From Bugula neritina (taxonomy: Eukaryota > Animalia > Bryozoa), in NCBI GenBank assembly GCA_964035545.1, contig OZ037768.1, forward strand, positions 13,897,675 to 13,961,674: DNA of 64,000 bases. The letters are read 5' to 3'. A program made the translations under genes and the position numbers. The notes beneath the pieces are model-generated. The model was not told the origin of the DNA. It did not search any database and was given only the letters and a program-made list of their open reading frames with translations. Positions 1,315-60,705 of this stretch are shown here, one piece after another. The first letter of the stretch is position 1. Every line of letters starts with the position of its first letter.

Positions 1315-2443
1315 TTACTCCTGAGCAGCTCGTTTGAGATGAGCAATAGACTCCTTCAGAGACTGCAGCTCGCTCGCTGCAGTCGAGATTTTTGGGGCGA
1401 GCCGATGTACTTCGCGCTCTAACTCACTAGCCCGGAGCTCCACTTCACGCAAGTTACGGGCCAAAGAGAAATAACCGGGAGGAGAAGAGGAGTGCCACCG
1501 TCGCTTGTGGTCTGAAAAAGGGAGAGGGGAGGACGAGCGTTTCTGGGGTCTCGTCTCGATGCGTTGCAGTAGGACTCGGGGAAGAGACTTGGGAGGAGGT
1601 ATAGGTTCATCTGGATAGCGTTTCACACTTGGATTCCGGTATACGGGGGATTTAGTGATACGGCCAGGGGTGATGGGTCTGGAAGCGGGAAATCTCGGAG
1701 AGAGACGCTGGAGTCAAGCTGGATTGGAACTTGAGATAAGATGCCTCATCCACATCATATAAGTTCCAATGGGAACAACTCATCATCCTCTGATGACAGA
1801 GTATGTAGTCTCTGTGGTAGCTGAACTCTCCACAGGGACAAAAGGTGGTGACAAAGTGTTGCGGAAGATGTATCCGCAGCCTGCGGTGGGTTGTAAAGTG
1901 CTGCTGACAGAGTCGACATGTGGTGCTGTCTTCATCACCCCGGTGTTAAAGAATTTCTCTTTCTGTCTCCGGCGTCGTCCAGCACGTCTTGGATTCCAGT
2001 GCGTGTAGCAGTGTACAACTGGATTGAGTAGGTAGTTTGGACTCAGGAACACGCCATCTCTAAAGATGGCATCCCCGTAGGAGTGGGGGAACGAGTGTCG
2101 TCTAAAAGAGTAGAATTATTGTTAGATCAAGGCCGACCTTTACAACATAGTTCTAGTGACTATCGACTGTTACTAGTCTGAGGGTCAGAAATTCTTTTAT
2201 GAGGCACTCGAGAGACCGTGTTCGGACGTGTAGACTGACTAAGAATCATAGCGTCTAGCTCTAGATCTAAAAGATTGTTGGCCATTACTACGTCCTCGTC
2301 GTCATTCACATTAGACACGGTCTCCAGTAGTTCTGATTTCATCAGGTTGATTAACTAAGAATTAGCTGGTAGCAGACCCATTTCCATAGATAAGAATATT
2401 AGATCTAGACAGGCTTACCTTGGAACTCGGTATTTAGAGACAT
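1315..2443 (-). pseudogene. Decayed zinc-finger/coiled-coil accessory gene (ORF3) of copy A
   Basis: Manual translation gives CRLCQQHFTTHRRLRIHLPQHFVTTFCPCGEFSYHRDYIL (~1790-1920) and the C-terminal ORF 1315-1626 (PRVLL...RNLREVELRASELEREVHRLAP). Mini-exon 2419-2443, intron 2102-2418. Contains stops and frameshifts. Confidence 0.85.
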
Positions 2444-5400: not shown

Positions 5401-6824
5401 AGGTTAGCCCAAACGGCAGCCCCTTCCACTTCCATAGTTCGTCCCGTGTAATGAACGCCGCCTTCTTTTGAGCGTCGGGACTCAGAGGAACCTGCCAGTA
5501 CTCGCTCAACAAGTCTAACATACTGAAGTACTTGCTGCCGGCTAAGGCATTCAAGGATTCATCAATACGGGGTAGAGGGTAGGCGTCCTGTATGGTCACG
5601 CTATTGAGTTTGCAGTAATCCACACAGAACCGCCAACTTCCGTCTTTCTTCCGGACCAAGACGACCGGCGAGCTCCATGCGCTATGAGCTGGCTCTGTGA
5701 GGCCGCGGTCCAGAAGATCTCGGACTTGTCGGCTGACCTCCTTTTCCTTCTCCAGCCCCAACTTGCGCGTGGGTTGCCGAATAGAAACTGTCCCCGCAGC
5801 CAGCGATATCTCATGACGGATAGCTCGTGTCAGTCCCACGTCATGGTCTCCGCTGCTAAACACGTCGTTATACTCTGGTAGCAACTTCGCCATAGCCTGG
5901 TGTTCCTCGTTGCTCACTCAGTCGTCACAGGCTGTCTCATACAACTTATTGACGTGTGGCGGAACAGTCCCCTGCCCTTTGGGCGGGTGCTGTTGGGGAC
6001 CCTCTGTCGTATCTCCCAACAACGGTCCTACGTCCTCTTTCTGGACAAAGTGGAAACGACCCAGCATGGACTCTGCCGGTAGCTTTACCGACTCTGTGAA
6101 GGGGTTGACACACTGCACTAAAATCTCTCCTCGCGTAGTCAGCTGATTGAGACTGCTGGCAAGCTGGATTCTAGTGTTTAGACATTTGCATGGACCTGAT
6201 ATTTTTCTTATGTTAATTTCGGGCAACTGGATGTGATCCTTTTTTGTAATATTATTATAAATATACCTATCTTTCTCACGCTGAAGCTTGTGTAATTCCT
6301 CTCGGGTTACGTAACTCGACCAATACCATAATTGCATGCAGTAGAATCCAGCACAATGCAATAATTCTGGAAATTATTACACTTCAACAAGTGGTGGCTT
6401 ATTACAGTAAAGTTCTTTCGGCCCTTGAAAAGAACCACTGCCCTACCAAGAAAGAGCTCCTGGCAGTAGTTAAGACGGTTAAGCACTTCAGACCATATTT
6501 GTATGAGCGAACATTAAGACTGCAAACAGATCACGCATTCTTGATATGGTTGTGCAGACGAGCTGAACCTTCTAGTCAAGTGTTACATATGCAATGGATG
6601 CTGCTACAGCCCTGACTATGACAATAAATAACAGCCATATAGCCATGAAGTATCTATTATAATTTTGTATTATGACCGGCTATCACTAAAAAGCTATGTA
6701 ATATTTTGTATACAAACAGTGAATTTTCTCTGAGGTAATTGTATTTGTCTGGAATTCAAATATACGACATTGTATGATATCTACATAAATTATCCTTTCT
6801 ACCCAAGAATACAACAGGATAAAT

Positions 6825-6844
6825 TGGCGACGAGGATGGGATTC
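6825..6844 (+). promoter_or_regulatory. Primer-binding site, tRNA-Ser(GCU)
   Basis: TGGCGACGAGGATGGGATTC is complementary to the 3' end of eukaryotic tRNA-Ser(GCU) (GAAUCCCAUCCUCGUCGCCA). It lies 8 nt after the 5' LTR. Confidence 0.85.
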
Positions 6845-7018
6845 TTCTTTTGAGTGGACAAAGTTACCAGTGGAGTTCTACATCTACTTCAGAGTTTGAC
6901 AGATAGAACTACCTACAGCAGAGGAATCTCGGACTGTTCAGAACAATACCAGGCTAGGCAATATCTACACTCTAATCGCCTTGTGAGTGACACAAATTAA
7001 TTTTCAAAAATTTTCCTA

Positions 7019-8499
7019 ATGGCAGAAGTTGCGGAGTTAGTAGCCATGCTTAAACAAACACAGGAAGACAATAGAAAATTAATGCAAATGCTAATGGAAG
7101 GGAGAAATGAACCTAAAGCATTACCGACAGTTTCTATACCTAATTTTCCGGCATTTGATTCGACATTAGAATTGTGGACGAACTACTGGACTAGGTTTAA
7201 CACTTTTGTAGCTGCACACGCTATTCCAGAAGACCGCAACCCAAAGATCTTCCTAACCTCTCAGTCAGCTGCAACATATAAGATTCTAGGAAACTTATCA
7301 GCTCAGATGACACCACCAAAAGACATCAATGAACTTACAATGGCAGAAACAACAGAATTCATGAAGGACCAGTTCGACCCAAAGAAGTTCATCATAAGAG
7401 AGCGATTCAAATTTTAGAGTGAAATGCGACGTAAACCAAGCGAGACTGTTCAGGAATTAGCTGCACGGATTCGGTCAGGACGCCACAACTTGTGATTTTG
7501 CTTCCATCACCAATCCACTAGATGAAGCTATGCGGACAAAATTCATTTGTTCTGTTAGCAATGAAGCAGTTCTAAAAGCGTTATTCAAAATTAAAGTTGA
7601 TGAATTGACCTTCACCAGAGCTGTGGAAATTGCAATTGAAACTTAAGATGCAGCAAAAGTAGCCAAGGAAACTGCGCATGGAGTTAAGGCTACAGGTGTC
7701 AACAAAGTTTAGACTGACAAAAAATCAACAAACAATGCTAGCAGCGTTTCTTCAACAAAGAAAGAAGAGACTCAAGAAAAAACTAGCTGTTACAGATGTG
7801 GAAAAAGACATTCAATGCAATTTTTGCAAAAAACTAGGTCACATAGAATCAGCATGCCAACTTAAGAAGAAATCAACATCAACATCACAACCTGTCAAAG
7901 TTATCACTTCTACCGTAAGAAGGATTGAATCTCTATCACAGTTACAACAGAAGTTACAGATAGAGGGTGTGGAATTCACTATGGAATTGGATACCGGAGC
8001 ATGTGAAAATTTCATCACTGCCGACATTTGGGAGAAACTTGATCGACCGAATTTGGAGCCAACAGAAGCACAGTACGAGTCAGCATCTAAACATCCTATT
8101 AATGTAATGGGACAATTCCAACGAGTTGCCAACATTCCTGATAAAGACAGTGAACAGATGTTGAACTTCGTAGTCACAAAAATACCACAACTAAATCTTC
8201 TAGGACGTGACGCTATACAAAGGCTACAGATATCTATAGACGACAAGATGAAGATTCCATGTACATCATCACCTACAAGTAATCCAGTGAACACAATTTT
8301 CCAAGATCTTAAACCTGACTACTCATTACAGAAAGCTTGCGAACAAGTTTGTCAAGAATTTCCAGATCTTTTCAAACCAGAACTGGGTTGTCTCAAAGAT
8401 TTTGAGTTGGAGATTGAATTCAAACCTGACTCGAAACCAGTATTCGGCAAAGCCAGACCAGTTCCATTCGCTATGCAAGATGATCTTGTCCAAGAATAT
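7019..8499 (+). pseudogene. gag: gag-protease of the Mag-like element (frameshifted)
   Basis: ORF 7019-7417 is the Gag N-terminus. ORF 7678-8586 contains the knuckle CNFCKKLGHIESAC and the aspartic protease motif LDTGA, and is cut by the solo LTR at 8500. Confidence 0.85.
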
Positions 8500-8965
8500 T
8501 GTTGTAGTTTTGCGGGTTATGAGAATAGACTAAGTAGTCTGCATGCCAATTATTGTGATGAAATAAAGAGTCTTGTTAAACTGTAATTAATAGTATTTAT
8601 TGCTTTCTTCATCTGTCAACTCCAGTGCAGTACTGACTTTAGATTCGAAAACTCGCACTTATATATGGTGGAATTCCCGCCACTAATGGGGGTCCGGAAC
8701 TTGTACGAAGCTCGGAGTTCCGCCGACCGACATCGGAGAGGATCCTGTCCGATCTCAGACAGGCCCCTCTGACCTCGTGTCTTTGGCCTCCGACTTCACA
8801 CGAGCTTCGGCTCACATATAATTACTATTATTAAAAGAAAAACAAGTGGCGAGGGAACATAACTCTAAAAACTATTACAGTAACTTAAAAACAAACAATA
8901 AAAATAGGAAGGCAATTCACAATTATTACGCTATTCACTACGCTAAGAGCTTAGCTATAATTACA
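8500..8965 (-). mobile_element. Solo LTR of another family inserted in the Mag-like element
   Basis: 466-bp non-coding insert with TGT...ACA ends, flanked by ATAT (8496-8499 and 8966-8969). TATA-like and AATAAA signals lie on the - strand. Confidence 0.7.
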
Positions 8966-9062
8966 ATATTTGAGGCATTAGAAAGCTACGCATCTGACTA
9001 AAAAGAACGCTGTTTGGAAGTGGGGATCTGAAGAAGAGTCAAGCTTTCAGAAACTTAAAAAG

Positions 9063-10937
9063 ATGTTATGCTCGGACACAGTACTAGCTCATTTTGACCC
9101 TACCTTGGAAGTCGGGATTTCCTGTGATGCCTCATTAATGGGAATAGGAGCTGTTCTTTTTCATCAATACCCAGATGGATCAGAAAGACCAATCTTCAAC
9201 GTTTCAAAGACACTAACTGGAACTCAGAAGAAATACGGACAGATACACAAAGAGGCGCTAGCTATAGTGTTTGCACTAAAGAAGTTTCATCAATACCTCT
9301 ACGGCTGGCGGTTTATCTTGGTTACCGATCACCGACCATTATTGGCACTATTTGGACCTACAAAGAAGACGCCAGCTTTAGCAGCCAACAGACTAGCAAG
9401 ATGGGCACTGCAACTGAGTCAATACGATTATAGTATTGAGCATCGCACGACCAGCAAACATGGCAATGCAGATGCACTTAGTAGTCTGCCAGTTGGCCCA
9501 GACTTTAAGTTTGATGAGGAGGAAGATGGCGATGATATGGACACAATATGCACGATACGACTGATTTCTCAACAATTGAAGCCAACAGATCCAGGAGTAC
9601 TTCTAAAAGAAACCTTGAAACCTTGAAACCCTGTTCTGTCTACAGTAATTCGCTATACAAGAGAAGGAAGGCCTAAAACACTAGAAGAGACAAGCACAGA
9701 AGATGAGGACCAAACTCATAGTGCAGCTTACAACATACAGTGTTTCAAGAAGGTGTCTGGCTCACTCTCTATCTCAGATGGATGCTCGCTGTATGGTTCA
9801 AGAGTTGTAATACCGCTTACCCTTCAGCCACAAGTTCTGCAGATTCTTTATCTAGGACACTTTGGCATGCAGCGGATGAAACAACTCGCACGTTCTGCTG
9901 TTTATTGGCCAAGAATAGACGCAGACATCATGGATGCTTGTAAACAGTGCAGCTCTTGCGCTGAGCACCAGAATCAACCAGCCAAAGCTCCTCTCCGTCC
10001 TTGGATGATTCCAGAAAAGCCATGGAGTCGTACTCACATCGACCATGCAATCAACTTTCTGGGAAGCAACTGGCTAGTAATTATGGATGCATACTCAAAG
10101 TATCCCTGCATACATCCAACTACATCAACATCTTTGAAGAGAACTACAGAGCTTCTAGAACAAGACTTTGCACACTTTAAATATCCACACACAATTGTAT
10201 CCGACAATGCAAGCACATTCAAGTCTGAAGAGTTTCAAAGCTGGTGCCGGGATCGTGGAATAGTTCATCTATCTGGAGCCCCTTATCACTCTGTCACAAA
10301 TGGAGCAGCTGAAAGACTAGTGCAATCATTTAAACAGGCTCTAAGAAAATCTAATTTACCACCAAATCTAGCTTTGACTGAATTCCTGATGCACTATCGA
10401 CGCACACCCTTGATAGGAGGATACTTGCCCAGTGAACTGCTGAATGGGAGACAGATTCGTTGCAAAATTGATGTTCTGCCACCATCACCAGCACACCAAG
10501 CCCAAGGACGACAATCAAAAGAATTGGAAAAGTCTACAGACCAGAAATCCACTGTATCCAAAGTTCACACATATACAGTTGGAAGTCTTTGCTAAGCACT
10601 CTATTGTGGACCCCAAAGAAACAGAGAACCACGATGGGTCCCTGCTATTGTCACAAAAGTATTGGGACCAAGAAGTATAAATGTCAAAGTCACACCAAGA
10701 GGACCAATATGGAGACGTCATATTGAACAACTATTATCACGCTACGGAGTTGAGGAAGATTCTGAACCAGCAGACGATGTGAAATCTGAAGTTCAAATGG
10801 CTGATGTTTCAAATGACGATAGTACTGCTAACCAAACACCTCAACCATGGAGAAATCCCAGACTACCCACAGGCGGAGAGTATGGACCTGAAAATCTTAG
10901 AAGGTCAAAGAGATTGGCAGCTCGCCAAAATACATAG
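9063..10937 (+). pseudogene. pol: RNase H and integrase of the Mag-like element
   Basis: CDAS...KEALA...TDH RNase H motifs at 9063-9626. HHCC-like and DDE integrase at 9753-10595, tail 10662-10937. A short tandem duplication (aaaccttg, ~9609-9630) shifts the frame. Confidence 0.9.
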
Positions 10938-13207
10938 ATGCATCAAGGGCTAGTGGGGAGATGTTACATTCGCAACGGATGCTGCTACAGCCCTGACTAT
11001 GACAATAAATAACAGCCATATAGCCATGAAGCATCTATTATAATTTTGTATTATGACCGGCTATCACTAAAAAGCTATGTAATATTTTGTATATAAACAG
11101 TGAGTTTTCTCTGAGCTAATTGTATTTTTCTGGAATTCAAATATACGACATTGTATGATATCTACATAAATTATCCTTTTTACTCAAGAATACAACATCA
11201 AGTTGCGCGTTGGCTTGGGATCTTGGCAGAGTTTTAATACTGGATCGAGCACCGACCCGGAAAAAACACAGTGATGCTGATGAATTGAGCCGGCGACATG
11301 GGGAGGGGTGTAAGCAATGCCTAAACATTGAGGGCAGAGATGGTGGACCCCCTTGGAAGAGCAGTTAGGGAGGGCAGGTGTATACAGCTGGGAAGGAGGC
11401 TAACTCCGGTCTGACCCTCCTTTTGAAACTGTCAACACCCTTCATGCAAACCCTACACTGCTCTGAAATGTCGGAGAGCTTTGTAAGCTTTAAGCTACGC
11501 TACCGGGGGTAGTAGCCGACTTAGTTCAGGCCAAGAAGGAGAGACGACAGCCTTGTGAGGTTGAACAACGGGTCAAGTGTGCGGAGTTCAAGTATTTCTG
11601 TGACCGTTTGGGCTCCCTCAAGTTTAATAGTGATGGGCTGTTGATGATAACGTTAGGTCTGGTGGTATTGGCCCAGGATGATCCGGGATGTCTGACTCCG
11701 GGTGCAGAAGTGTAAGGTATGCCAAGCTAGCAAGCATGGCCGCTCCACCACAGGGAGGCGTCACCTCCATACCAGTCGTCCATGGCAAGTAGATCTGGTG
11801 GGCTCCATGCCTACATCTGAGGGAGGTAATAACTGGGTACTGGTGTTAACTGACTACTTTACGTGGTGGGCTGATGCTCTGGCTATTCTGAACGAGTCGG
11901 CCACAACGGTGGCCAGGGCCTTGGATCAGAACGTGCTCTGTTGTTACGACTTGCCGGAGCAAATACACACTGATCAGAGTGCCCAGTTTCAGTCGCAACT
12001 TATGAGTGATCTCTGTAAAACGTAGGGGGTCAACCAAAGCCAGACTACCCCATATCACCCACAAGGAAATGGGGTTTTTGAGCGGAACAACCATATGCTA
12101 GGCGACTCTCTGAGAAGCCTACTACTGGGTAGAAGTCAGGAAGAGTGGGACTTGGTGCTGCCGCAAATCATGCGAGCATACCGTAGTACCCCTCACTCCA
12201 GCATACTAAAGACCCCAAACTTTCTCATGCCCAGTAGAGAAAGAAGGGTTTCTGAGCATTCAACCTACTATGTTCCTGCTCTGGAGAGCAGCGTCTACGA
12301 GTACAGGGATGAGCTCATTACTCGCATGAGGACGGCTCACGAGATTTTGTGTGAGCAGCAATGGCGGTTGAGGAGTGAAGACTCTGGCGACCTCCCCCCC
12401 AATTTGTATAAGGAGAGAGACTGAGTCTGAATGATTAGTCACTACCGGCGGTGCAGACAGGCGGCTAAGTTACAGCTGAAGTTTGTGGGTCCTTATTGTG
12501 TAACCGAGGTGATGCCCAATCACACGTATAAGGTGGAACGTTCGAGTCAGGTATCGATCCAGAACGAGGCCTACCTGAAGCCAGATGGGGGGAGCCCTGA
12601 CGCACCAGGGCAGGCTCCTCCATTCTTGGAACCCACGTGTTGTCCGACCATGAGAGGACGGGCTAGGGCTCACAGGGAGTTAGAGGTTATAGTGCAGAGA
12701 CCGGAAGAGGCAGCCGAAGAGCCGACAGACTGGCCCCACCACCAGTGGAGCTGGCCGACGCACCTGCAGTTCCCAATGAGATGGAGACTCTCTTAATTAA
12801 TGAGGATAATAGAGCTGAGGAGGACCCCCCGCACCAGAGACCCCACTCGTAGCAGTGGACTCAATGGTGGCAGCAGCTCTCCCAGTACCGTTAGAACATA
12901 GTCAACGTACTAGGGCTCCTCCATCTTATCTTCAGGACTTCTTTTGTGACTTGGTCGACATGCATACTATATTGTAAGTCGTCAGTCAGTACAAAAGAAG
13001 TCTGGAGAGCAGCAATTGAGAGTTGTATCTTCTAGTGGCGTATGCATTAGGTCAGCTGGAGGGTCAGCAAAGGCGGAGCCAACTCACCGGCTGAGAGGGG
13101 TGTTATGTAACCACTCTTGTCGTGTAGAGTGCCCTTTTCAATTGTAACTGTCGAAGTAACAGCATGTCTTTGTGAGCATTGGCAGCTACAGGCCTTAAAC
13201 AGACAGT

Positions 13208-14380
13208 ATGACTGACACTGTGACTTCTTGTAGGGTAAGTCTAATAGTGAAATTCTGTTATTCAATTAGAATTTAGCCTAGTAGGCAACTACAGTCTCAC
13301 TTTATTATAATGATAAAGTTGGACTCCTGACGTCAGGTGATTTCACTGACGACTTGTAGTTGAGTAATCACCCAAATAGTTTATGGAACCAGAAGGTTGC
13401 TGATTATTCTACTCGGTCGCAGTGTCGTACTAACTAGGAGGAGTTTTCTACAAGGGAGTGGTGATTCAATAACTGCTACGGTTGAATCCATGTGTTCTGT
13501 TGCAGGTGAGGCTGCGCCTGGGTCTCCCGGGATGCAGGCTTTATTAGATGCCCCTACTTCTTAATGGGAGGATATATCTCACGCTGGCCTGCAACTGCTA
13601 TCCGACCTGCACTTTGGTACCCAGCCGGCCGAACAACCACCCATAGATGCTAGTACAATGCAGGTGACCACCAATGATGCTCTAGCCTTGCCACAGGCTC
13701 TCCTCAAAAAGGTGAAATAGACCACCAGGCAGACGAAGATGTTGGTACAAGCGATCATAGGCCTGGAGACCAACAGGAAATGTGATGAGTGCCGGCGCAC
13801 CTTTTCCACCATAAAGCGGCTCTGCGTACACGTGCCGCAGCACTTTACAGTGACACTCTGCCCCTGTGGTGTCCATCACTTTTATAGAGATGCTATCCTC
13901 CGTCATCAAAGGACAAAGCAATTTTATGCCTATCACATATTTGAGGTGGATCAAGATTTATACAGAGAGTTTCAAGACTTAATTCTCTCCCACGTATTCT
14001 CTCCATCACGACAGGAATCATTGCTGCAAGAGTTTCCCAGTACTCGGCCAACAGTGGAAAATGACTCGGACGCCACTGGTTCCAACTTCAACCCTGTAGT
14101 CCCCGTGTTGGCTAAAGTGATGGTGACTCGCGCTAGTCGGTCGGTAAAGGAGTCCATCCAGCCACTCCCCTCTCAGTCGTTACCCACTTCCATGTCACGT
14201 CGGAAGAGAAGAAAGAGGTCCAAGGCTACGACAACCCCTGACGACACTATAAAGGCTAAAATGTGTACAAACCTGGAGAAGCTACAACAGCGCTTCGCCA
14301 GACTATGTAAGGAGCAACAACGGATAGTCTCGAAGCTAGCTCGGTTACAGGAGCTCTTCAACAAGCAGACCTCTAACTAA
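13208..14380 (+). pseudogene. Decayed zinc-finger/coiled-coil ORF3 of copy B
   Basis: CDECRRTFSTIKRLCVHVPQHFTVTLCPCGVHHFYRDAILRHQR, a basic RRKRRKRSK patch and a terminal heptad repeat. Donor GTAAGT at 13235, acceptor TTGCAG ending at 13505. Confidence 0.8.
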
Positions 14381-14523
14381 ACGATATGTATCATGATGAT
14401 TATTATTCCCGGCGGTTGTTTCAGCTCGTGGGTGCGAGTTCCTTTGCTTACATTATTGTAAATAGTTGTAATCAGAGTATGGTCGTGGGACAGTGCATTA
14501 ACTGTAAATATATATTGTTATAT

Positions 14524-14829
14524 TGTTATGTTTTTCAGATTTAGGGTTGATGTGCCACCAAGAGAGTCTATTTATCACTAGAGAAACTTCACCGAGTTAA
14601 GTCGAGTAGATATCGTTATATTTTAATACAAGAATACATAATAAAATCTAATGTACAACAGTAATGATACGCACGTCTATTTAATTTACAGCACTATCCT
14701 CAACTGAGCTAGTAGCGCGAAGCGGCTACTATTACTTATAAAACAGCCTAGCTAATTGGCTAATACATTGTTCCGGGTCAATACGCAACCTTGCGTATTG
14801 TGTTGCTGGTAGCTCCACGAGCCACCACA
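14524..14829 (-). repeat. 3' LTR of copy C
   Basis: Direct repeat of 21671-21976 with TG...CA ends. Confidence 0.97.
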
Positions 14830-15097
14830 CTGCCCCCTCCAGCAGAAAGCCCACTTTCTGATAAAATAAAATTCACATAAAAAAACGTATACTTCGTTGT
14901 GGGGGGGTAAGAGAACAGTATAAAAGTATATACAAAAAAAACAACAACTGATAAAATATACAGGTATATATAACGTGCACAATAAGTAATAAGTAAGAGA
15001 AGGTCCTATCTACATGTAGAGTACGTGCCACCATTACGGTAAGGAATGCCACAGAGAGGTAGGGGAAGAGTAGTATGGAATTGTAGGTAGACTCAAG

Positions 15098-16171
15098 TTA
15101 ACTGCGGGCCGCACGCTTCATGCGTTTAATAGACTCCTGTAAATATTTGAGTTCACTGGATGCAGCCTGCACCCGTGGGGCCAGTCTGTACACTTCTTGC
15201 TCTAAGTCGTGTGCCCTAGCTTCTACTTCACGTAGGTTGCGGGCCCAGGGGGACGAGCGAGAGGAAGTCGGCTGTCTGTGTCTTTTCCGCTCTGAGGATG
15301 GAAGGGGAGGAGGGAGTGTATATGCATTTGTGTCTACCCTCTGTAGTACGACACGAGGAAAGGTATGCGGCATGCGTAGAGGACTGTGAGGTGGAGAGTT
15401 AGTAGACTGTGTAGGTTTATCTGCGGCTCCAGAGATGATGGGTCGCGGGGAAGGGAAGCCTTGCTCCAGGCGAGATAGCCGAGCTGAGTCAGTGATGAGT
15501 GGTTTGATGGCGTTGAGAAAGGCAGGATAGGATGATTCGTCTACTTCATAGACATGCCCTTGATAACACTGCATAGCACGTTGGTGCCGCAATAGGTAAT
15601 CACGATTGTAGCTATATTCTCCGCAAGGGCAGAAAGTGGTGATGTAGTGCTGCGGCAAGTGTACTTTTAGTCTGCGGTGGGTTGTGAATCGCTGCTGGCA
15701 GAGGTTGCATTCACGATTACTCTCACCTCCTTGATGGGTCCTGATTTCTCTCTCTGTGGCAGGGGTAATCCAGTTGGAGGTTGCTTCCAACTGGGGTGGC
15801 AGTTGCCTGGTTGTAGAAGTTGTTGGGGCCGGCTCTGGGTCCCACGCCATCTCTAGAGAAGGCATGCCCGGAGAGACGGGCGCGAGTGTGTCTACAAAAG
15901 TAGAATTATTGTTAGATCGCGGTGGATCTTTACAACATAATTCTAGTGACTGTCGACCGTTGCTAGCCTGAGAGTCACAGCTTTTGGAATGCACTCGAGG
16001 AACCGATGAATCATGTGTGGACTGGCCAAGAACAGTGTCTAGCTCCAGGTCTAACAGACCGTCGGCCATTACAGTGTCTTCATCGTCATTCACATGAAAC
16101 GTGGTTCCCAGTAATTCTGATTCAAGCTGCTGAATTAGTTCAGAATTTACTGGCATCGAGCCCGTTTCCAT
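15098..16171 (-). CDS. ORF3: tandem C2H2-type zinc finger plus coiled-coil accessory protein (357 aa unspliced; 272 aa if spliced from mini-exon 16203-16227)
   Basis: CNLCQQRFTTHRRLKVHLPQH (C-x2-C-x12-H-x3-H), then CPCGEYSYNRDYLLRHQRAMQC, PRVVL, RKRHR and a C-terminal heptad repeat. Homologous ORFs occur in copies A, B and E. Confidence 0.85.
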   Translation of the reverse strand: METGSMPVNSELIQQLESELLGTTFHVNDDEDTVMADGLLDLELDTVLGQSTHDSSVPRVHSKSCDSQASNGRQSLELCCKDPPRSNNNSTFVDTLAPVSPGMPSLEMAWDPEPAPTTSTTRQLPPQLEATSNWITPATEREIRTHQGGESNRECNLCQQRFTTHRRLKVHLPQHYITTFCPCGEYSYNRDYLLRHQRAMQCYQGHVYEVDESSYPAFLNAIKPLITDSARLSRLEQGFPSPRPIISGAADKPTQSTNSPPHSPLRMPHTFPRVVLQRVDTNAYTLPPPLPSSERKRHRQPTSSRSSPWARNLREVEARAHDLEQEVYRLAPRVQAASSELKYLQESIKRMKRAARS

Positions 16172-16188
16172 GAATAGGAATACAAGAC

Positions 16189-19100
16189 TTATACTGGCTT
16201 ACCTGGGAACTCGGTATTAATGTCCATACTCAACGTTCTTGGTAAGGTTGGAGCTGGTTGTGAGATACGTCTGCCTTTGGCGATGTCAGCATAAGAAAAG
16301 GCTGAGCATCGTTTCTGAGGCACGAGGTCGGAACTATTTGCTTTACGCGCATTAATTCCTCCCACTATTCCGCCCTCGCAAAAGTTGATATTTGCGTGGG
16401 GTTCACAACTCCAACATGTTATCGTACGGTTTTCCCCTAGACTTTCATGCGCGCCGCTTCTAACGCAGTCACATACGAAGTCTTTTAAATATGATGGGGG
16501 TTTCCTCGTACGCTGTCCCCTTTCTAGGGGGGGTGACACGCTTGCCGGTTCGTTAGTAGGGGCCTCTAATGGCGTCTCTACTTCACCGTTAGCGGTCACC
16601 TCTTCTTGTTCTCCGGATGGAGCCCCTCCCTCCGTGGGGGTTTGCACTTCCGGAACCGGCTCGGTTTCTGGAAGTGATGGAATTAGACTCGGCGGCGGCG
16701 GACACGCTTCTGTTGGCAAAAGCTGCCGCTCCTCTCTCACCAAGTTTTCTTCCCGCGGTATGACCACTTCGTATTCAGGTCCATGCCGCCGTCGCCCGCG
16801 CGTCGTTGTCTGCCTCCTGGGCTCTAACAACGGGGGGGCTTCTCCCACTCCGTCGGGGCTAGCCCAATACGGTTTCAAGCGAGACTCATTCTGGATAGAC
16901 ACCTGTCCTGAGCGCTCAATCTTGTACGTATGATTGGGCATAGCCTCGACGACCACGTAGGGGCCTACGAACTTAGGCTTCAGTTTGTCAGCCTGTCCGC
17001 GACGCCTACGGTAATTGACCATCCACACCTTATCTCCCGTTTGATAGAGAGGTGGTTCATCGGAATCTTCGTGCCGCACCTTCCACTGCTGTTGACGCAG
17101 TATATCGTGTGCGGCCTTCATCCGTTCCACTAGTTCACTGGCATACTCGTGAACCGAGTTGTCTTGCTCTGGAACGTGATAGGTGAGATGGTCAGGGACA
17201 CGAGTCTCTCTCCCGAGCATCAAGAGGTTTGGGGTCTCACCAGTACTGGTGTGTGGGGTGCTACGGTATGCACGCATGACTTGCGGCAATACCGTATCCC
17301 ATTCCTCTTGACCTCGTCCAAGGAGGAGACTCCGGAGTGCATCACCTAGCATCCGGTTGTTGCGCTCCACCACCCCGTTACCTTGAGGGTGGTAGGGGGT
17401 GGTCCTGCTCTGATTTACTCCCCAGAGGTGGCAAAGGTCGCTCATCAGTTGAGACTGGAATTGAGCGCCTTGATCAGAGTGTATCTGTTCGGGAAGCCCA
17501 AAATAACAGAATACATGTTGGTCTAGCGCCCTGGCCACTGTTGGGGCTGATGCATCTGGGATAGCCAGAGCATCCGCCCACCTAGTAAAGTGGTCGGTTA
17601 GTACTAGTATCCAATTATTGCCTCTGGGGGTCAGGGGCATGGGTCCGACCAGGTCTACAGCGACTACTTGCCAGGGCCTACCAGCATATAGCCTCCGCCG
17701 TCCTGCTTCACCAGGGGGGCGGCTATGCTTACTGGCCTGGCAGATCTCACACTGTTTGACTCTGAGCCGGACGTCACGCTCCATCTGCGGCCAATACCAC
17801 CGGAGTCGTAATTTGGATATCACTCTCTTGACCCCTGCGTGGGCCTGCTTGTGAGTATCCCAAATCAACTCACGGCGGACGGCCGTGGGGCAGACTACCC
17901 TCTTCCTTTCCGGGTGTCTGCCGCTGGCAGCTAGAGAGATGGTTAGCAACCCATCCTGCCCGATCCGCAGCGAGTCCCAACGCTGACAGTATAGCCGGAA
18001 CTCGGCGCATCCCTGTCGTATGCGTTCCTCGCTGGGTCGTCGCCCTTCCCTTTTGGCCCGGTATATGTCTGCCACGACTCCAGGCAGCTCTTCTTGGAGC
18101 TTCTTCAGCTCTCGAACATTACCGGCCAATACAGGGTTGGCGCGGAGGTTTTGTACATCCTCCGGGGACTCATCAACTCTTTGTCTGAGTTGACCTTGGT
18201 CCCAGTCAAACGGTGCTCCGTGATGAGCCAGCGTCTCCAACTCGCATCGCGGGGGACCTCCATCCCTCCTCTCGATGTTGAGACACTGTTTGCAACCTCC
18301 GTCAGGTCGGCGACTCAACCCATCCGCATTACTGTGTCTCTTGCCCGGTCGATGTTCGATCCGGTATGAGAATTCAGCTAGGATTTCGAGCCACCGGGCG
18401 ACCTGACTAGAGGGCTCTGCTCTCTTGCACAACCAGATCAGCGAGGCATGATCCGTACGCAGCCGGAACTTCCTGCCGTATAGGTATGGTCTGAAGTGCT
18501 TCACTGACTTGATTACTGCCAGCAGCTCCTTGCGGGTAGTGCAGTAATTTCGTTCAGCGGGTGAGAGAGACTTGCTGTAGTAGGCTACTACTACCTCTCG
18601 GCCTTCCTGCACTTGTGACAGCACAGCGCCAACATTTTGGTCACTGGCGTCCGTGTCGAGGATGTACTCCAGAGTGGGGTCTGGGTAGGCCAAGATGGGT
18701 GCCGTTAGTAGGCAGCCCTTGAGGCGGTCGAACGCTTCTTGTTCGACTGGGGTCCACTGCCACGCCACTCCCTTTGCGGTGAGCCGGTTTAACGGCTGGG
18801 CTATGCCCGCAAAGTCTGGTATGTATTGCCTGTAATACCCTACCAGCCCCAAGAAAGCCCGGAGTCCGGTCAAGTCTTGGGGGGTGACCCAGTCTTCTAC
18901 CGCCCGTACCTTTTCGGGATCCGTTGCCACGCCGTTTCGACCGACAACGTGCCCCAGGTACTTGACCTCCGGCTGCAATAGAGCGCACTTGGAAGGTTTG
19001 AGCTTGAGACCGGCACCTCGGAGTCTCTCGAAAACCTCCTGCAGACGACTGACATGTGTCTCGAAGTCTGGAGAGATTACGATGACATCATCGAGGTAGA

Positions 19101-20463
19101 CCAGCAGTGTCTTCCAATGGAGTCCGCTAAGGACTTGTTCCATCAGCCTCTGGAAGGTGGCTGGGGCGGAGGTTAACCCGAAGGGCAGCACCTTCCACTT
19201 CCACAAACCGTCCCGTGTGATAAACGCCGCTTTCTCTTGGGCGTCGGGACTCAGAGGAACCTGCCAATAGCCGCTTAGCAAGTCTAACGTACTGAAGTAC
19301 TTGCTGCCGGCTAGGGCGTCCAATGACTCGTCAATACGAGGTAGAGGGTAGGCGTCCTGTATGGTTACGCTATTGAGTTTGCGGTAGTCCACACAGAACC
19401 GCCAACTGCCGTCTTTCTTCCGGACCAGTACGACTGGCGAGCTCCACGCACTATGGGCGGGCTCTATCAGTCCCCGGTCCAAAAGATCCCGTACTTGTCG
19501 GCTGACCTCCTTCTCTTTCTCCGGCCCCAGCCTGCGCGTGGGTTGCCGGACAGGGACTGTCCCTGCAGTCAGCGGTATTTCGTGTCTGACAATTCCAGTC
19601 AGTCCCACGTCATGCTCTCCGCTGCTGAACACATCACCGTAGTCGCGTAGTAACTTAGCCATAGCTTGGCGTTCTCTGTTACTCGCGCAGCCGCCACTGG
19701 CTGTTTCGTATAACTCTCGGAGATGTGTTGGGACTGCCCCTCGTCCCTGAATAGGGTATCGAGGGGGTGCCTCCGTCGCGTCACCCAGCGACGGGCCCAC
19801 GTCCTCTTCCTGGACGGAGTGGAACCGGCCCAGCATTGACCCAGCTGGGAGCTCAATGGGCTCGGTAAAGGGGTTGACACACTGCACTAAGACCTCCCCT
19901 CGCTCAGTTAGTCGGTTTAAACTACTGGCGAGTTGGATCCTTTCGTGCGCGCCTTCAACGACCCCGAGCCTGGCTATCCGGTTGCTGTTCACTCGGCAGT
20001 GGATAGTAGCTCTGGAGCGTCCGGGTACGGTGCAGTTTCGAACTACCTGAACACCGCCCACCAGAGGACGCCCAAACTTATCCACACAGGCGAGTTCTCG
20101 CCCGCCCATCAGCACCACCGACTTACTAAAGTCTATTCGGCACTGGTGTTGCTTCAAGAAGGGCATTCCGAGGATAGCATCTTCCTCCAGTTGACCTATG
20201 ACAAAGGTCTCCTGTACAGCCTGATCTCGGACACGCCCAGGGAGCTCGATAATACCATAAAAGGGAATACATGACCCGTCTGCCAGGGTGCCATGTTCCC
20301 CCGTATACGGTCGTACTCTATCCCTGTCCCGGCGGGGCAGTGCCTCAAAGACTCTACGACTAAGAAGGTTGGTAGTACAACCGGAGTCGAGCAGGAAAGT
20401 GACGGCGTTGCCGGCCACCTTTCCGGGTAGGAAATAGCTCTCTCCATGTGGTTGTACTTTCAC
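16189..20463 (-). CDS. pol: Pol polyprotein (protease, RT, RNase H, integrase)
   Basis: 1424-aa ORF with LLDSG protease, YLDD RT, DTDAS/ELLA/TDH RNase H, and H-x3-H...C-x2-C plus DDE integrase, in gypsy order. Confidence 0.97.
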   Translation of the reverse strand: MKVQPHGESYFLPGKVAGNAVTFLLDSGCTTNLLSRRVFEALPRRDRDRVRPYTGEHGTLADGSCIPFYGIIELPGRVRDQAVQETFVIGQLEEDAILGMPFLKQHQCRIDFSKSVVLMGGRELACVDKFGRPLVGGVQVVRNCTVPGRSRATIHCRVNSNRIARLGVVEGAHERIQLASSLNRLTERGEVLVQCVNPFTEPIELPAGSMLGRFHSVQEEDVGPSLGDATEAPPRYPIQGRGAVPTHLRELYETASGGCASNRERQAMAKLLRDYGDVFSSGEHDVGLTGIVRHEIPLTAGTVPVRQPTRRLGPEKEKEVSRQVRDLLDRGLIEPAHSAWSSPVVLVRKKDGSWRFCVDYRKLNSVTIQDAYPLPRIDESLDALAGSKYFSTLDLLSGYWQVPLSPDAQEKAAFITRDGLWKWKVLPFGLTSAPATFQRLMEQVLSGLHWKTLLVYLDDVIVISPDFETHVSRLQEVFERLRGAGLKLKPSKCALLQPEVKYLGHVVGRNGVATDPEKVRAVEDWVTPQDLTGLRAFLGLVGYYRQYIPDFAGIAQPLNRLTAKGVAWQWTPVEQEAFDRLKGCLLTAPILAYPDPTLEYILDTDASDQNVGAVLSQVQEGREVVVAYYSKSLSPAERNYCTTRKELLAVIKSVKHFRPYLYGRKFRLRTDHASLIWLCKRAEPSSQVARWLEILAEFSYRIEHRPGKRHSNADGLSRRPDGGCKQCLNIERRDGGPPRCELETLAHHGAPFDWDQGQLRQRVDESPEDVQNLRANPVLAGNVRELKKLQEELPGVVADIYRAKREGRRPSEERIRQGCAEFRLYCQRWDSLRIGQDGLLTISLAASGRHPERKRVVCPTAVRRELIWDTHKQAHAGVKRVISKLRLRWYWPQMERDVRLRVKQCEICQASKHSRPPGEAGRRRLYAGRPWQVVAVDLVGPMPLTPRGNNWILVLTDHFTRWADALAIPDASAPTVARALDQHVFCYFGLPEQIHSDQGAQFQSQLMSDLCHLWGVNQSRTTPYHPQGNGVVERNNRMLGDALRSLLLGRGQEEWDTVLPQVMRAYRSTPHTSTGETPNLLMLGRETRVPDHLTYHVPEQDNSVHEYASELVERMKAAHDILRQQQWKVRHEDSDEPPLYQTGDKVWMVNYRRRRGQADKLKPKFVGPYVVVEAMPNHTYKIERSGQVSIQNESRLKPYWASPDGVGEAPPLLEPRRQTTTRGRRRHGPEYEVVIPREENLVREERQLLPTEACPPPPSLIPSLPETEPVPEVQTPTEGGAPSGEQEEVTANGEVETPLEAPTNEPASVSPPLERGQRTRKPPSYLKDFVCDCVRSGAHESLGENRTITCWSCEPHANINFCEGGIVGGINARKANSSDLVPQKRCSAFSYADIAKGRRISQPAPTLPRTLSMDINTEFPGKPV

Positions 20464-20770
20464 CCCCCCCCCCCCCCCGCATGTGCTGTCCTGGTTTGAC
20501 AGGACGGCGGGGATTTCACCCGTGGTTTACGGGGCTTCCGGCGGCGAGGTTGGTGCCGGCGGGGTTTGGGCCTCTCCACTGGGCCTTCTGGCTCCATTTC
20601 AGTGGCGGGCTCCTCTTCCCGAGGTAACCGGTGAAACCGGTTAGCGAGTGGCAGGGAGAAGGTACTTGGCCGTTGTGCGGGCCTACTAGTCCTGCGTGGT
20701 ACCTGCCACTCGGGTGGAGTGTTCCGTCGTGTCCGTACGGACAGACGACGGCGTGTTCCACCATACTCCT

Positions 20771-21637
20771 TCAGTTGCGGCCCGCGGGGAGGGAGAGTGT
20801 CCGCGGGCCGTGACAGTTTAACGCCCCCTGGTATTGGGGTCGTCTTTTCTGTCCCTGGTCCTGATCAGCGCTACTCCAGCCCTGCCCCACAGGCGTTGGA
20901 GGCACCCGCAGGGCCTGACCGGGGCCAGCACCGGCCAGAATGGTTACCAGTTGTCCCAGCATCTCTACCATACGGTCCACTTCGGCTTCCAGCGGGAGGG
21001 CTTCGGGACCTGTCGTAGCCCTGGCAGCGCTGACTCCAACTACTGGTGGGTTCCTTTGTGCTCGATGCATTTGGGTAGCCAACAGGTAAGCTTCTCCAGC
21101 CTTCAGGGCATCCTCTATTTTGGTTATCCTTTTAGCTCGTAGGTGATGGTCTAGGCCCAGGTCGTTTAGTGACTGGACAAAGGCGTCATAGGTGTAACGC
21201 TCTTGGTGTTGTGCTGGCAGATCGCTATATGCAATCTGCGCCAGCTTCTTCACCGTCGCGGCATGTTCTTGCAGCGAGGTCCGCGGGGTGCGGCACAATC
21301 TCTCTAGCTTGGTCCTAGCGTCTATTACGGAGATGCCAAAACGGGCCCGCAGCGCAGCCAGTATTCCGTCTACGTCCGTTCCCACTCCGTACGGCTTGGC
21401 TTGCTCCGTCACCGCTCTCCGCAATTGAATAAGGGCCACTCTATGCGGCCATTGAGCAACCTCCATTACCTCTCTAAATTCTTGTATAAATTGTTCGACA
21501 TCTTCCGACCCAGTAAAGGTGGGAGCTTTCAAGCAATGTCTATAAGCTTCTTCTCCCTCACGATTCACAGGATTAACAGCATTTCTACGCTCACCTTCTA
21601 CTGGGGGTGGTTGCATTCTAGTATTTTCAGTCTCCAT
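20771..21637 (-). CDS. gag: Gag (288 aa, no CCHC knuckle)
   Basis: Starts 14 nt after the PBS. KAPTFTG..DVEQFI..F capsid-like start. Nearly identical to 62729-63595. Confidence 0.9.
   Translation of the reverse strand: METENTRMQPPPVEGERRNAVNPVNREGEEAYRHCLKAPTFTGSEDVEQFIQEFREVMEVAQWPHRVALIQLRRAVTEQAKPYGVGTDVDGILAALRARFGISVIDARTKLERLCRTPRTSLQEHAATVKKLAQIAYSDLPAQHQERYTYDAFVQSLNDLGLDHHLRAKRITKIEDALKAGEAYLLATQMHRAQRNPPVVGVSAARATTGPEALPLEAEVDRMVEMLGQLVTILAGAGPGQALRVPPTPVGQGWSSADQDQGQKRRPQYQGALNCHGPRTLSLPAGRN
20778..20822 (-). promoter_or_regulatory. Putative -1 ribosomal frameshift signal (G_UUA_AAC plus stem-loop)
   Basis: Heptamer at 20816-20822 in the Gag frame, a 5-nt spacer, then a perfect 10-bp stem CGGCCCGCGG/CCGCGGGCCG. 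Equivalent sites are at 55112 and 63544. In copy D the -1 frame is open from this site into pol. Confidence 0.8.
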
Positions 21638-21651
21638 CTTTGATATACACT

Positions 21652-21669
21652 ATCCCACCGCTGCCACCA
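21652..21669 (-). promoter_or_regulatory. Primer-binding site, tRNA-Leu
   Basis: TGGTGGCAGCGGTGGGAT is complementary to the tRNA-Leu(AAG/UAG) 3' end. It is identical at 54183-54200 and 62697-62714. Confidence 0.9.
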
Positions 21670-21670
21670 C

Positions 21671-21976
21671 TGTTATGTTTTTCAGATTTAGGGTTGATGT
21701 GCCACCAAGAGAGTCTATTTATCACTAGAGAAACTTCACCGAGTTAAGTTGAGTAGATATCGTTATATTTTAATACAAGAATACATAATAAAATCTAATG
21801 TACAACAGTAATGATACGCACGTCTATTTAATTTACAGCACTATCCTCAACTGAGCTAGTAGCGCGAAGCGGCTACTATTACTTATAAAACAGCCTAGCT
21901 AATTGGCTAATACATTGTTCCGGGTCAATACGCAACCTTGCGTATTGTGTTGCTGGTAGCTCCACGAGCCACCACA
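21671..21976 (-). repeat. 5' LTR of copy C
   Basis: Direct repeat of 14524-14829, adjacent to the PBS. Confidence 0.97.
21849..21906 (-). promoter_or_regulatory. LTR core promoter (CCAAT, TATA, Inr)
   Basis: On -: CCAAT 21906-21902, TTTTATAA 21890-21883, TCAGTT 21854-21849. The same order of motifs is present in the otherwise divergent LTR of copy E (53946-54003). Confidence 0.6.
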
Positions 21977-37933: not shown

Positions 37934-38260
37934 GGCTAATATTGAAAATGCAACTTCTATTTTATTTAAAAAAAACCACGTGGTCACTCAGAACAACAAA
38001 CTCGATGTACATACTTGCATTATGCGTGTCGGTGTTCACTGTGATTTTCTATCAACGGAATAATTATATTTATTGTAATAAACATTGCGTTGTTGAAAAT
38101 AATTTACTCTTCCTGCACCAATAATTATTATAGAAAACTTTAGCGATGTAAATCAAATTTAAGATTTGAGTTTTTGATTAATGGTTACGTAAAAGTAAAA
38201 GTAAAGACAGCTCTAACTGTAGTACTCTAGTAGATCTATTACTATTAGTATTATATTACT
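37934..38260. repeat. Dispersed ~300-bp repeat, second copy at ~62031-62340
   Basis: GGCTAATATTGAAAATGCAACTTCTA...GACAGCTCTAACT is shared, and both copies run into (TATTAG)n. Confidence 0.85.
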
Positions 38261-53822: not shown

Positions 53823-54218
53823 TAAGACTATTGGGGTGGCTCGTGAAGCTACCATCATAACAAAAACGGAGAAATGTTAATTCCCTTCTAAGTACAGCAC
53901 GGGAGTCACTAAGTATACTATAAAGATGGCCCGAGACAGCAATCCGCCAATAGGAATCATGAACTATAATTATTAGCTGTGACTTCCGGCGCAATAGTCA
54001 GTTAGGAATAGTCTGGCAAACTGCAAACACTGTGCTGAGTAGTTGTTGATGCATTTTGGATTGGATATCATTGTATAAAATATATTATTGTAACCTGAAC
54101 CTTACTTGCAGAGTTGATTTAGCTTACATGTTATGAAGTAACTTGATTGCACACTAACCCACAATACTGACAAAGATAACAGTGGTGGCAGCGGTGGGAT
54201 CAGCTGTGTATATCAACG

Positions 54219-59631: not shown

Positions 59632-59656
59632 TACAAACTATTCTCAGATATTCAGT

Positions 59657-60705
59657 ATGTCATACAATACTGGATCATGGGGTGAGTTAACTATGTTCTT
59701 TTGGTATGGAAAATAGATTGCATCACCCAGCTCCGACTCGACTGAGTTAATTGAGTTGGAGATAGGCTAGTGAAATGCAGTGGTAGGAACACAGATTGAC
59801 TTAAAGATTTAACAATCTCCCACTGCAGTGTGTGTTCCCCTCTAACCATTCACTAACATACATCTCTTCCGAGTGCGTAACTGAATGAGAAGCTGTCAGG
59901 CTGTCTAATGCCGGCAACACTTCAGTGTATTCTACTAACACTGTTGAACTCTTTCAGGTTACACTCGACCCGCTACTACCAGGGTAAGGGGTCGACCACT
60001 TTCCACCTCACCCGTAGAGGAAGAAGCAAATGGCGGACTACCAGGACCACTACGTCGCCGTTGGCAATGGGTGACACCGGCGACGGAGAGGAAGATAAAG
60101 GCTGCGTGGGGACCGAAGGGGAGTACCCAATGCCAAATCTGCTACGAAGACAAGCCATCTCACCGCTCCCTAAGACTGCATGTGGATGCACACTTTCTAT
60201 TGACATTCTGCCTATGCGGGCATCACGATGTTACCCATATCCGATCATTAAACATAAAGCTGCTGGATACTTCCCTGGGGAGAACTATGTCGTAGATGCC
60301 GACATGTATCCAGAGTTCCTAGCGCTCATTCGGCCCCTAGTGAAGAAATCAATGGTACTAGCCGTCTTGACCTCGAGGTTTCATCATGTACTAAAGTATG
60401 CCCGGCAGCAGTCTTCCATGGTATCAGACAAACCCGAAATCCCATACACTCCTGAAGAACCAACCTCCACGGAGATGGCAGGAGAGTCAGAATTCCCCCA
60501 TCAGAAGGCCACGACTCCACCACCGGACCGTACCACCCGTCTAGCCACCGTAGAGGAGCGACTCCTTCTGTTACAGGCCGACTTCACGCAATTAGCCCCA
60601 GACTTGTTAAACACAACAACTGGACTATACCAGCTTAAGGGCTCGGTGGGTAGAATAAAACGGAGGCTACGTGCCCGTCAGGCTAAACATCGGCTCTCTA
60701 AATAA
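59657..60705 (+). pseudogene. Spliced zinc-finger ORF3 of copy E
   Basis: Mini-exon 59657-59681, intron 59682-59957 (GTGAGT...TACTAAC...CTTTCAG), then in frame WVTPATERKIK...CQICYEDKPSHRSLRLHVDAHFLLTFCLCG. One frameshift at ~60230 leads into the C-terminal coiled coil. Confidence 0.85.

Follow-up and report, generated by a model that had tools for sequence, protein, structure and literature searches.

Complex retroviruses carry regulators of their own, among them Tax and Rex of human T-lymphotropic virus (HTLV) and Tat and Rev of human immunodeficiency virus (HIV). The foamy virus protein Tas is a further regulator of a complex retrovirus (PMC7828637). In Cer1, a Ty3/Gypsy element of Caenorhabditis elegans, the env position is taken by CERV, a non-Env protein described as spliced, nuclear, and equipped with a leucine zipper and a Cys finger, which is required for unspliced RNA to be exported but not for transcription (PMC10309623). 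Long terminal repeat (LTR) elements of bdelloid rotifers are described with third open reading frames (ORF3s) that encode a DEDDy exonuclease, a GDSL esterase, or transmembrane/coiled-coil (TM/CC) proteins (PMC5408684), and the plant and fungal elements Grande, RIRE2, Retand, and Boty with additional ORFs (PMC7264820). The sORF2 product of MDG1 is reported as a membrane protein (PMC11952523), and chromodomains are reported at the integrase C terminus of Gypsy elements (PMC13524379). Here, we analyzed a 64,000-nucleotide stretch of the Bugula neritina genome (contig OZ037768.1; the whole stretch is called the window below), which holds four copies, A to D, of a Ty3/Gypsy family with a zinc-finger gene, ORF3, in the env position. 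A non-Env accessory gene in this slot is already known as a kind, whereas the domain of ORF3 is apparently new.

CERV, as described in PMC10309623, is a protein of 517 aa that has exons in common with gag, contains an M domain, a G domain, and perhaps a C4 finger, and occurs in Caenorhabditis only. Unlike CERV, ORF3 combines a C2H2 finger with a CxC…H…C finger in one domain, has a terminal coiled coil and its own ATG at the pol end, and occurs in a Pol-fused sister form. The rotifer ORF3s are likewise family-specific accessory ORFs that animal Ty3/gypsy elements carry in the env position, but they are described as enzymes or membrane proteins (PMC5408684), and the term zinc is not in the main text of that paper. 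The plant and fungal ORFs are also conserved in the interval that runs from pol to the 3' LTR, with function unknown; in the account of PMC7264820, they are mostly antisense or env-like with membrane segments, whereas ORF3 is sense, animal, and C2H2-type. The module of the Pol-fused form sits where other Gypsy elements have a chromodomain or PHD finger, yet it consists of a different domain with a long acidic linker and a coiled coil, and in the window's family it is a separate ORF. Like the regulators of complex retroviruses, ORF3 would be a regulatory gene at the 3' end, probably expressed through splicing of an mRNA whose first coding exon is small; in contrast to them, it has no match in a viral structure library and belongs to an element without env.

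An earlier note on this DNA, made from the letters alone, knew of no described non-Env third ORF of this sort; Cer1 CERV (PMC10309623) and the rotifer ORFs (PMC5408684), as presented in those papers, are published animal examples. A description of ORF3 or of its domain was not found in the literature searched, the supplements of which may list such elements and which did not include Repbase, Dfam, or GyDB. The term zinc is absent from the available text of PMC13524379, PMC8556966, PMC6338049, and PMC13326412.

A selected zinc-finger gene in the env position

In copy C, a 7.45-kb element on the minus strand, ORF3 lies between the pol stop (16189) and the polypurine tract (PPT). Its long form is an intact frame of 357 aa (15098..16171, minus strand; ATG at 16171, stop at 15098). 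A tblastn search with this protein detected the gene in A, B, and D (E values of 8e-67, 2e-30, and 4e-18), where stops or frameshifts break it: copy A (1315..2443, minus strand) has both, copy B (13208..14380, plus strand) has a stop at the conserved W, and copy D (59657..60705, plus strand) has a frameshift in finger 2. The earlier note had placed a same-strand gene between pol and the PPT in all four copies. The gene is indeed present in all of them, and a PPT and LTR follow it in A, C, and D; no PPT was seen for B, which is cut by the insertion of C. The gene positions given there also hold, except that the 5' ends 2443, 13208, 16227, and 59657 mark a conserved upstream ATG, while the 357-aa frame starts at 16171. 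The LTRs of A, C, and D have no match to one another, in agreement with the claim that subfamilies with different LTRs share the gene.

From the N to the C terminus, the ORF3 protein consists of an acidic region, a double zinc-finger domain, a basic patch, and a terminal coiled coil (coordinates below are on the minus strand). By composition, the acidic region (15992..16171) has 13 D/E and 1 K/R in 60 aa. The stretch upstream of the domain is more acidic than that downstream in 13 of 14 distant relatives, and an acidic-hydrophobic motif, picked after looking, occurs in 11 of 31 against 1.3 expected. The compact domain (residues 125-245; 15437..15799), delimited by an AlphaFold model and by conserved columns, comprises a WxT helix, two fingers, a V-D strand, and helices; the model of its 121 residues reaches a pLDDT of 94.3 and a pTM of 0.85. 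Finger 1, C-x2-C-x12-H-x3-H (C155, C158, H171, H175; 15647..15709), matches zf-C2H2 best and has the classical C2H2 (PF00096) pattern, including its F and L core, with a Pfam score of 18.8, below the cut-off of 25.2. Finger 2, C-x-C-G-x11-H-x5-C (C181, C183, H196, C202; 15566..15631), was recognized by conservation: of 84 distant rows, 98% keep H196 and 60% keep C202, while C181 and C183 belonged to the anchor by which these rows were picked. A basic cluster at residues 295-299 (15275..15289), a candidate nuclear localization signal, is present in 14 of 17 full-tailed close proteins. The coiled-coil helix of 49 aa (15104..15250) is modeled with a pLDDT of about 93-97 and has a third-position excess of differences between C and A. 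The C-x2-C-x12-H-x3-H unit followed by C-x-C-G…H is found in all four copies, as is the closing heptad helix, and the W of the WxT lead-in is a stop in B, just as noted earlier.

Finger 1 has the spacing of the tandem C2H2 pairs of Kaiso, ZBTB38, SALL4, and CTCF, with which model residues of about 26-77 align (Z of 3.4-3.6). However, a canonical tandem C2H2 array is ruled out, since finger 2 is CxC…H…C (or H at the last position), the linker has 5 residues and is not of the TGEKP type, and flanking helices and a strand pack around the pair. No Pfam family scores above cut-off for ORF3, and neither a Pfam family nor a solved fold was found to cover the whole 120-aa domain. In a fold search, only the finger pair aligned, and weakly (Kaiso best, with a Z of 3.6 and a root mean square deviation of 2.8 over 57 residues); Foldseek with the domain model gave no match at an E value of ≤0.001. 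A profile search against solved proteins matched the finger 1 part alone, to solved C2H2 fingers, and a fold search with a two-domain model returned coiled coils only. The viral structure library gave no match in sequence or fold. The AlphaFold check proposed earlier returned a compact domain that apparently has no earlier description, and the modeled architecture supports a protein built like a nucleic-acid-binding dimer.

The protein also lacks a membrane segment, as claimed before: the top 19-residue Kyte-Doolittle mean is 0.58 in C, and all 49 close proteins are without a hydrophobic segment (means of at most 1.18). Signal peptide, fusion ectodomain, and membrane anchor, the features of an Env protein, were not found by hydropathy, Pfam, or the model.

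ORF3 is under purifying selection. The domain of C is 53, 42, and 37% identical to those of A, B, and D, against 90, 77, and 84% for reverse transcriptase (RT), which bears out the faster divergence than Pol described earlier. Between C and A, dN/dS over codons 94-357 is 0.21 (0.11-0.32), with dS near saturation and far from the neutral value of 1, again as proposed. The finger domain differs by 0.31/0.25/0.64 at the three codon positions, the coiled coil by 0.36/0.18/0.62. In the same comparison, dN/dS is 0.07 for RT, 0.66 (0.35-1.19) for the linker, and 0.52 (0.30-0.90) for codons 1-93, which show no third-position excess; no block exceeds 1. C versus D (50 codons) gives a dN/dS of 0.32, and C versus B (67 codons) a proportion of nonsynonymous differences (pN) of 0.35 and of synonymous differences (pS) of 0.84. 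In read run X1, summed contig depth, a rough measure, is 22.6-38.4 thousand for ORF3 and 35-54 thousand for gag; the gene therefore travels with the element family.

Synonymous divergence between C and A varies along the element. Between late pol and ORF3 codon 93 it is low (pS of 0.34-0.35, against 0.39-0.54 in the remaining pol), and it is high in the fingers (0.79) and coiled coil (0.87), compared with 0.39-0.47 in RT, RNase H (RH), and integrase (IN). Because this excess lies far above the values of RT, RH, and IN, the 3' block (15104-15799 in C, 1320-2050 in A) seems to have been exchanged between lineages.

Predicted splicing of ORF3

The conserved upstream ATG would open a first mini-exon at the pol end (16203..16227, minus strand; 25 nt from the ATG to the donor), followed by an optional GT..AG intron of 311 nt (15892..16202, minus strand) with a branch-point-like CTAAC and a pyrimidine tract. 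This predicted intron contains the ATG and the acidic region of the long form of copy C. In an unguided alignment, AGTATG, a GGT[A/G]AG donor, and a pyrimidine-rich YAG acceptor stand in register in all four copies; donor and acceptor lie at 2418 and 2102 in A, 13235 and 13505 in B, and 59682 and 59957 in D. The distance from ATG to donor is 25, 27, 25, and 25 nt in A, B (which is decayed), C, and D. Donor-acceptor intervals measure 271-317 nt, with a GC content of 0.39-0.44 against 0.50-0.54 downstream, and the acceptor is in phase, splitting a codon of the finger frame behind its first base. The ATG-donor pattern, which was drawn from the four tested copies themselves, occurs at that place in 4 of 4 and once more elsewhere in D, against 0.04-0.08 expected per shuffled element.

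Among 46 proteins carrying the motif ahead of the acceptor, all have L, S, V, or I at the residue that spans it, and 45 continue with a codon that begins with G, the pattern that a YAG would impose, seen here at the protein level only. The 10 Pol relatives extending as far as the donor all retain E-Y-[E/D] across the ATG and R-stop across the donor. Past a single stop, the donor-acceptor interval of C stays open; that of A holds 4 stops, that of B 3, and that of D 9. The view that codons 1-93 are a pure intron did not hold for the C/A subfamily, where 40 of 48 relatives read through them at least in part, a count that the length filter biases. It is plausible from these patterns that long and short forms both occur in the C/A subfamily and the short form alone in B and D; the spliced short form is a prediction.

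A Pol-fused sister form and the reach of the family

An integrase scan yielded 28 metagenome loci and 2 viral loci and none in prokaryote genomes. Two of these loci, L001 and L002, are 60-64% identical to copy C in IN and 73% in RT-RH, and they count as one family because they are near-identical alleles. Their single Pol frame (1744 and 1760 aa) ends in an acidic stretch, the domain (E values of 4e-19 and 2e-18), and a coiled coil, followed by a PPT and LTR. The last 200 codons differ by 10 synonymous and 4 nonsynonymous changes. As further observations on L001 (260-850), it shares the primer-binding site (PBS) of the window elements and has a leader of about 560 nt before gag with donor- and acceptor-like sites, and a phase-1 acceptor-like site stands ahead of the acidic motif in the Pol tail.

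The domain is missing from the other 28 of 30 loci; 9 of 14 flank-measured loci had at least 2.2 kb after the integrase match, and the remaining domain-negative loci have short or unmeasured flanks. In an IN tree of 33 rows, projected on the columns of copy C, with L028 and two other window elements dropped, the six domain-bearing rows form one side of a branch (100/97); the tree contains no named reference elements and so shows grouping only, not a named Gypsy clade. All six clade members examined carry the domain, so that the ORF3 module is clade-wide in these members.

P0275 and P0289, too, read in frame from a pol-tail motif into the domain (2 of 115 observed where 0.005 would be expected), and P0287 is similar by eye. 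Among 103 close Pol relatives, 22 reach the pol end, and in none of them could Pol read on into the domain: the frame ends ahead of the mini-exon ATG in 11, ends at the donor in a different frame in 10, and is cut in 1, with C as the exception. Fusion of Pol and ORF3 by splicing was accordingly rejected as a general feature of the window's family, being in frame in C only. No fused protein appeared among 7981 long candidates, in a weak search given that L001 shows such proteins to exist.

Two distant Gypsy elements from the scan, L003 (6346-9588) and L004 (4000-7284), are about 34-37% identical in IN and have a PHD finger at the Pol end. Their third ORF of about 1080 aa ends in a TatD DNase domain (E values of 4e-37 and 3e-30); a literature search with TatD returned no paper holding the term.

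At the protein level, 48 of 2558 candidates matched ORF3 at an E value of ≤0.001 (the close relatives). A wider search gave 211 representatives at this threshold, 150 of them listed; not all are family members, P0265 being a multi-finger host protein. Among the matches listed, 110 of 143 new relatives contain the domain according to a hidden Markov model built from those very hits, which makes the count circular. Conserved in the 84 distant rows are W134, T139, C155, C158, H171, H175, C181, C183, and G184, and further S187, R190, H196, V210, and D211, four of these columns having been in the row-picking anchor. By a simple score, the heptad helix ends 27 of 54 long-tailed relatives. A search of metagenome and viral contigs with the ORF3 patterns gave no locus, the ESM Atlas returned unnamed clusters and generic C2H2 families, and CERV was absent among the named hits of the family searches, in which no CERV sequence was compared.

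Of 30 proteins looked up, those with a named organism are gene models of Bugula neritina and Watersipora subatra, apart from one unrelated fish finger protein. A single clade of the seven bryozoan domain rows was rejected (approximately unbiased test, P = 1.4e-8, on a quick tree with long branches), and KAF6037488.1 nests beside a B-type element protein. KAF6037488.1, KAF6040922.1/23.1, XP_067940963.1, and XP_067944745.1 may each be either a domesticated gene or an ORF within an element. The domain thus has over a hundred relatives, no Pfam family, and occurrences in bryozoan gene models, which raises the possibility that transposons supply zinc-finger genes to the host.

Proposed function and alternatives

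Taking sequence, structural model, and analogy together, we tentatively read ORF3 as a selected non-envelope, nuclear, dimeric DNA-binding regulator of the element's own transcription. This reading is favored because the acidic region, fingers, basic patch, and coiled coil follow one another as in transcription factors; in addition, the two fingers align best, if weakly, with tandem DNA-binding C2H2 pairs such as Kaiso, the selection on ORF3 and the splice signals shared by the four copies are in line with it, and Cer1 CERV, as described, is a functional nuclear regulator in the env position (PMC10309623). The protein would enter the nucleus, dimerize, bind the element's own DNA, and set its transcription. 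The long form, with the acidic region, would act as an activator, and a short form of about 272 aa, made by splicing and without that region (ATG at 16227, intron 16202-15892), could serve as a repressor or competitor. The Pol-fused form would be carried within the particle and exert its effect on freshly integrated copies.

Several observations weigh against a transcriptional role. The basic residues of finger 1 are kept across families with unrelated LTRs, which fits binding to the DNA backbone, RNA, or protein equally well. Fusion to integrase would be unusual for a transactivator, and CERV, the nearest precedent, is reported to be dispensable for transcription (PMC10309623). In none of D, B, and A does the interval exceed shuffles in openness, by a rough lesion count with slightly offset intervals in which any frame may start, and the long form may be confined to the C/A subfamily. 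RNA support from run X2, which has 21 contigs over the element at a depth of 0-10, amounts to one low-depth ORF3 contig (15171-15446; depth of 2.55; 17 differences) that may stem from DNA carry-over. No splice junction occurs among the joints listed (15 of 89), and the lack of X2 cover at 15942-16198 is not evidence of splicing.

The existence of the Pol-fused form in L001 and L002 favors another account, in itself somewhat unlikely, by which the module is an integration tether that binds chromatin or AT-rich DNA and guides integrase, in cis if fused and in trans if separate, and so would occupy the place of the chromodomains or PHD fingers of other Gypsy elements. The domain and coiled coil at the Pol end of these loci, the in-frame pol-tail motif of P0275 and P0289 with the look-alike P0287, and the PHD finger at the same place in L003 and L004 all agree with it, as do the flanks ATAT, CTAT, and GTAT of C, D, and a further window element, E. 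However, none of the 22 close relatives reaching the pol end joins the domain in frame, the weak search of long candidates produced no fusion, three AT-rich sites have anecdotal weight where the genome itself is AT-rich, and the acidic region is left unexplained. We regard as unlikely, too, an export factor like Rev or CERV, made from a spliced mRNA, that would bind unspliced element RNA and enable its nuclear exit or block its splicing. Its appeal is that the genomic RNA holds a strong predicted donor-acceptor pair and must remain unspliced for inheritance, that pS is low from late pol to codon 93, as for an RNA signal, and that CERV, spliced, nuclear, env-positioned, and with a leucine zipper and Cys finger, is reported to be required for export (PMC10309623). 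Yet the CERV finger is described as C4-type, the likeness to CERV is by description only, the Pol-fused form could arise only after export, and splicing itself is only predicted.

Fast divergence outside the core, which would be expected under host conflict, and the synonymous saturation of the fingers relative to pol, suggesting block exchange between lineages, are in line with an anti-silencing protein that binds a host silencing protein through its fingers or coiled coil with little dependence on the element's sequence. Such a role is improbable, as core residues are kept over very long distances, no partner is indicated, and no block has a dN/dS above 1. Least credible is a recently captured host zinc-finger passenger without a role, or an Env-like membrane protein. 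The same domain does occur in bryozoan gene models, and a hydrophobic stretch of at least 1.6 was scored, not inspected, in 4 of 110 distant relatives. These two versions are largely refuted by the purifying selection on ORF3, its domain in 6 of 6 clade members examined, an X1 depth close to that of gag, the bryozoan rows that form no single clade and of which one nests among element-type proteins, and the 49 of 49 close proteins without a membrane segment.

A broader and more doubtful proposal is that an env-less animal Gypsy lineage is organized like a complex retrovirus, with its own regulator built on an undescribed zinc-finger domain, forms with or without an acidic activation region switched by splicing, a module that moves between a place in the integrase tail and a gene of its own, and its passage to bryozoan hosts on more than one occasion. 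Encoding regulators of their own is characteristic of complex retroviruses, and CERV is one worked-out animal Gypsy case. A second, apparently unrelated regulator, both fused and free, would provide a natural comparison for studying the origin of accessory genes, and the contrast of fused and free forms bears on integration tethering versus transcription versus RNA export. The conserved splice signals, the Pol-fused sister form, and RNA export as a candidate function had been missed by the earlier note.

Organization of copy C and neighboring elements

Copy C has an ATAT target duplication, a PBS, gag, pol, a PPT, and 306-bp LTRs that are 99.7% identical (14524-14829 and 21671-21976). By domain search, its pol (16189..20526, minus strand) encodes protease (PR), RT, RH, IN, and an SH3-like C-terminal domain; in Pfam, RT, RH, and IN score above the curated cut-off and PR under it. 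Its gag (20771..21637, minus strand) resembles that of D and E. The 3' LTR (14524..14829, minus strand) is immediately preceded by the PPT (14830-14840), and the 5' LTR with the PBS spans 21653..21976 on the minus strand. The PBS is identical in C, D, E, and L001, and it is a putative match to tRNA-Leu. TG…CA LTR ends, target duplication, PBS, and PPT, the hallmarks of Ty3/Gypsy, are present in C and in D, which spans 53832-61374 with a CTAT duplication.

In C, a mutation or an assembly slip at a G run near 20460 interrupts the frame ahead of the protease, whereas E reads through. The young copies C (20771-21637) and E (62717-63595) lack the CCHC knuckle of gag that is present at the corresponding position in D and L001. 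The flanks of C (ATAT, 14520-14523), D (CTAT, 53828-53831), and E (GTAT, 62386-62389) hint at an xTAT target preference from three sites only. Copies A and B stand head to head near 6200, with the 5' parts of both missing, and B (6250-14523) is split by a separate 4.6-kb LTR element (6581-11197) in addition to being cut by C. An LTR element of another Gypsy lineage, without the ORF3 domain, lies at 47672-52348 (LTRs 98% identical). The segments 37934-38305 and 62031-62390 are 91% identical duplicates, ending at the LTR of E in a TATTAG-type repeat, and may represent an empty-site paralogue. Finally, 30397-31107 is an array of a 21-base unit in which several frames are open.

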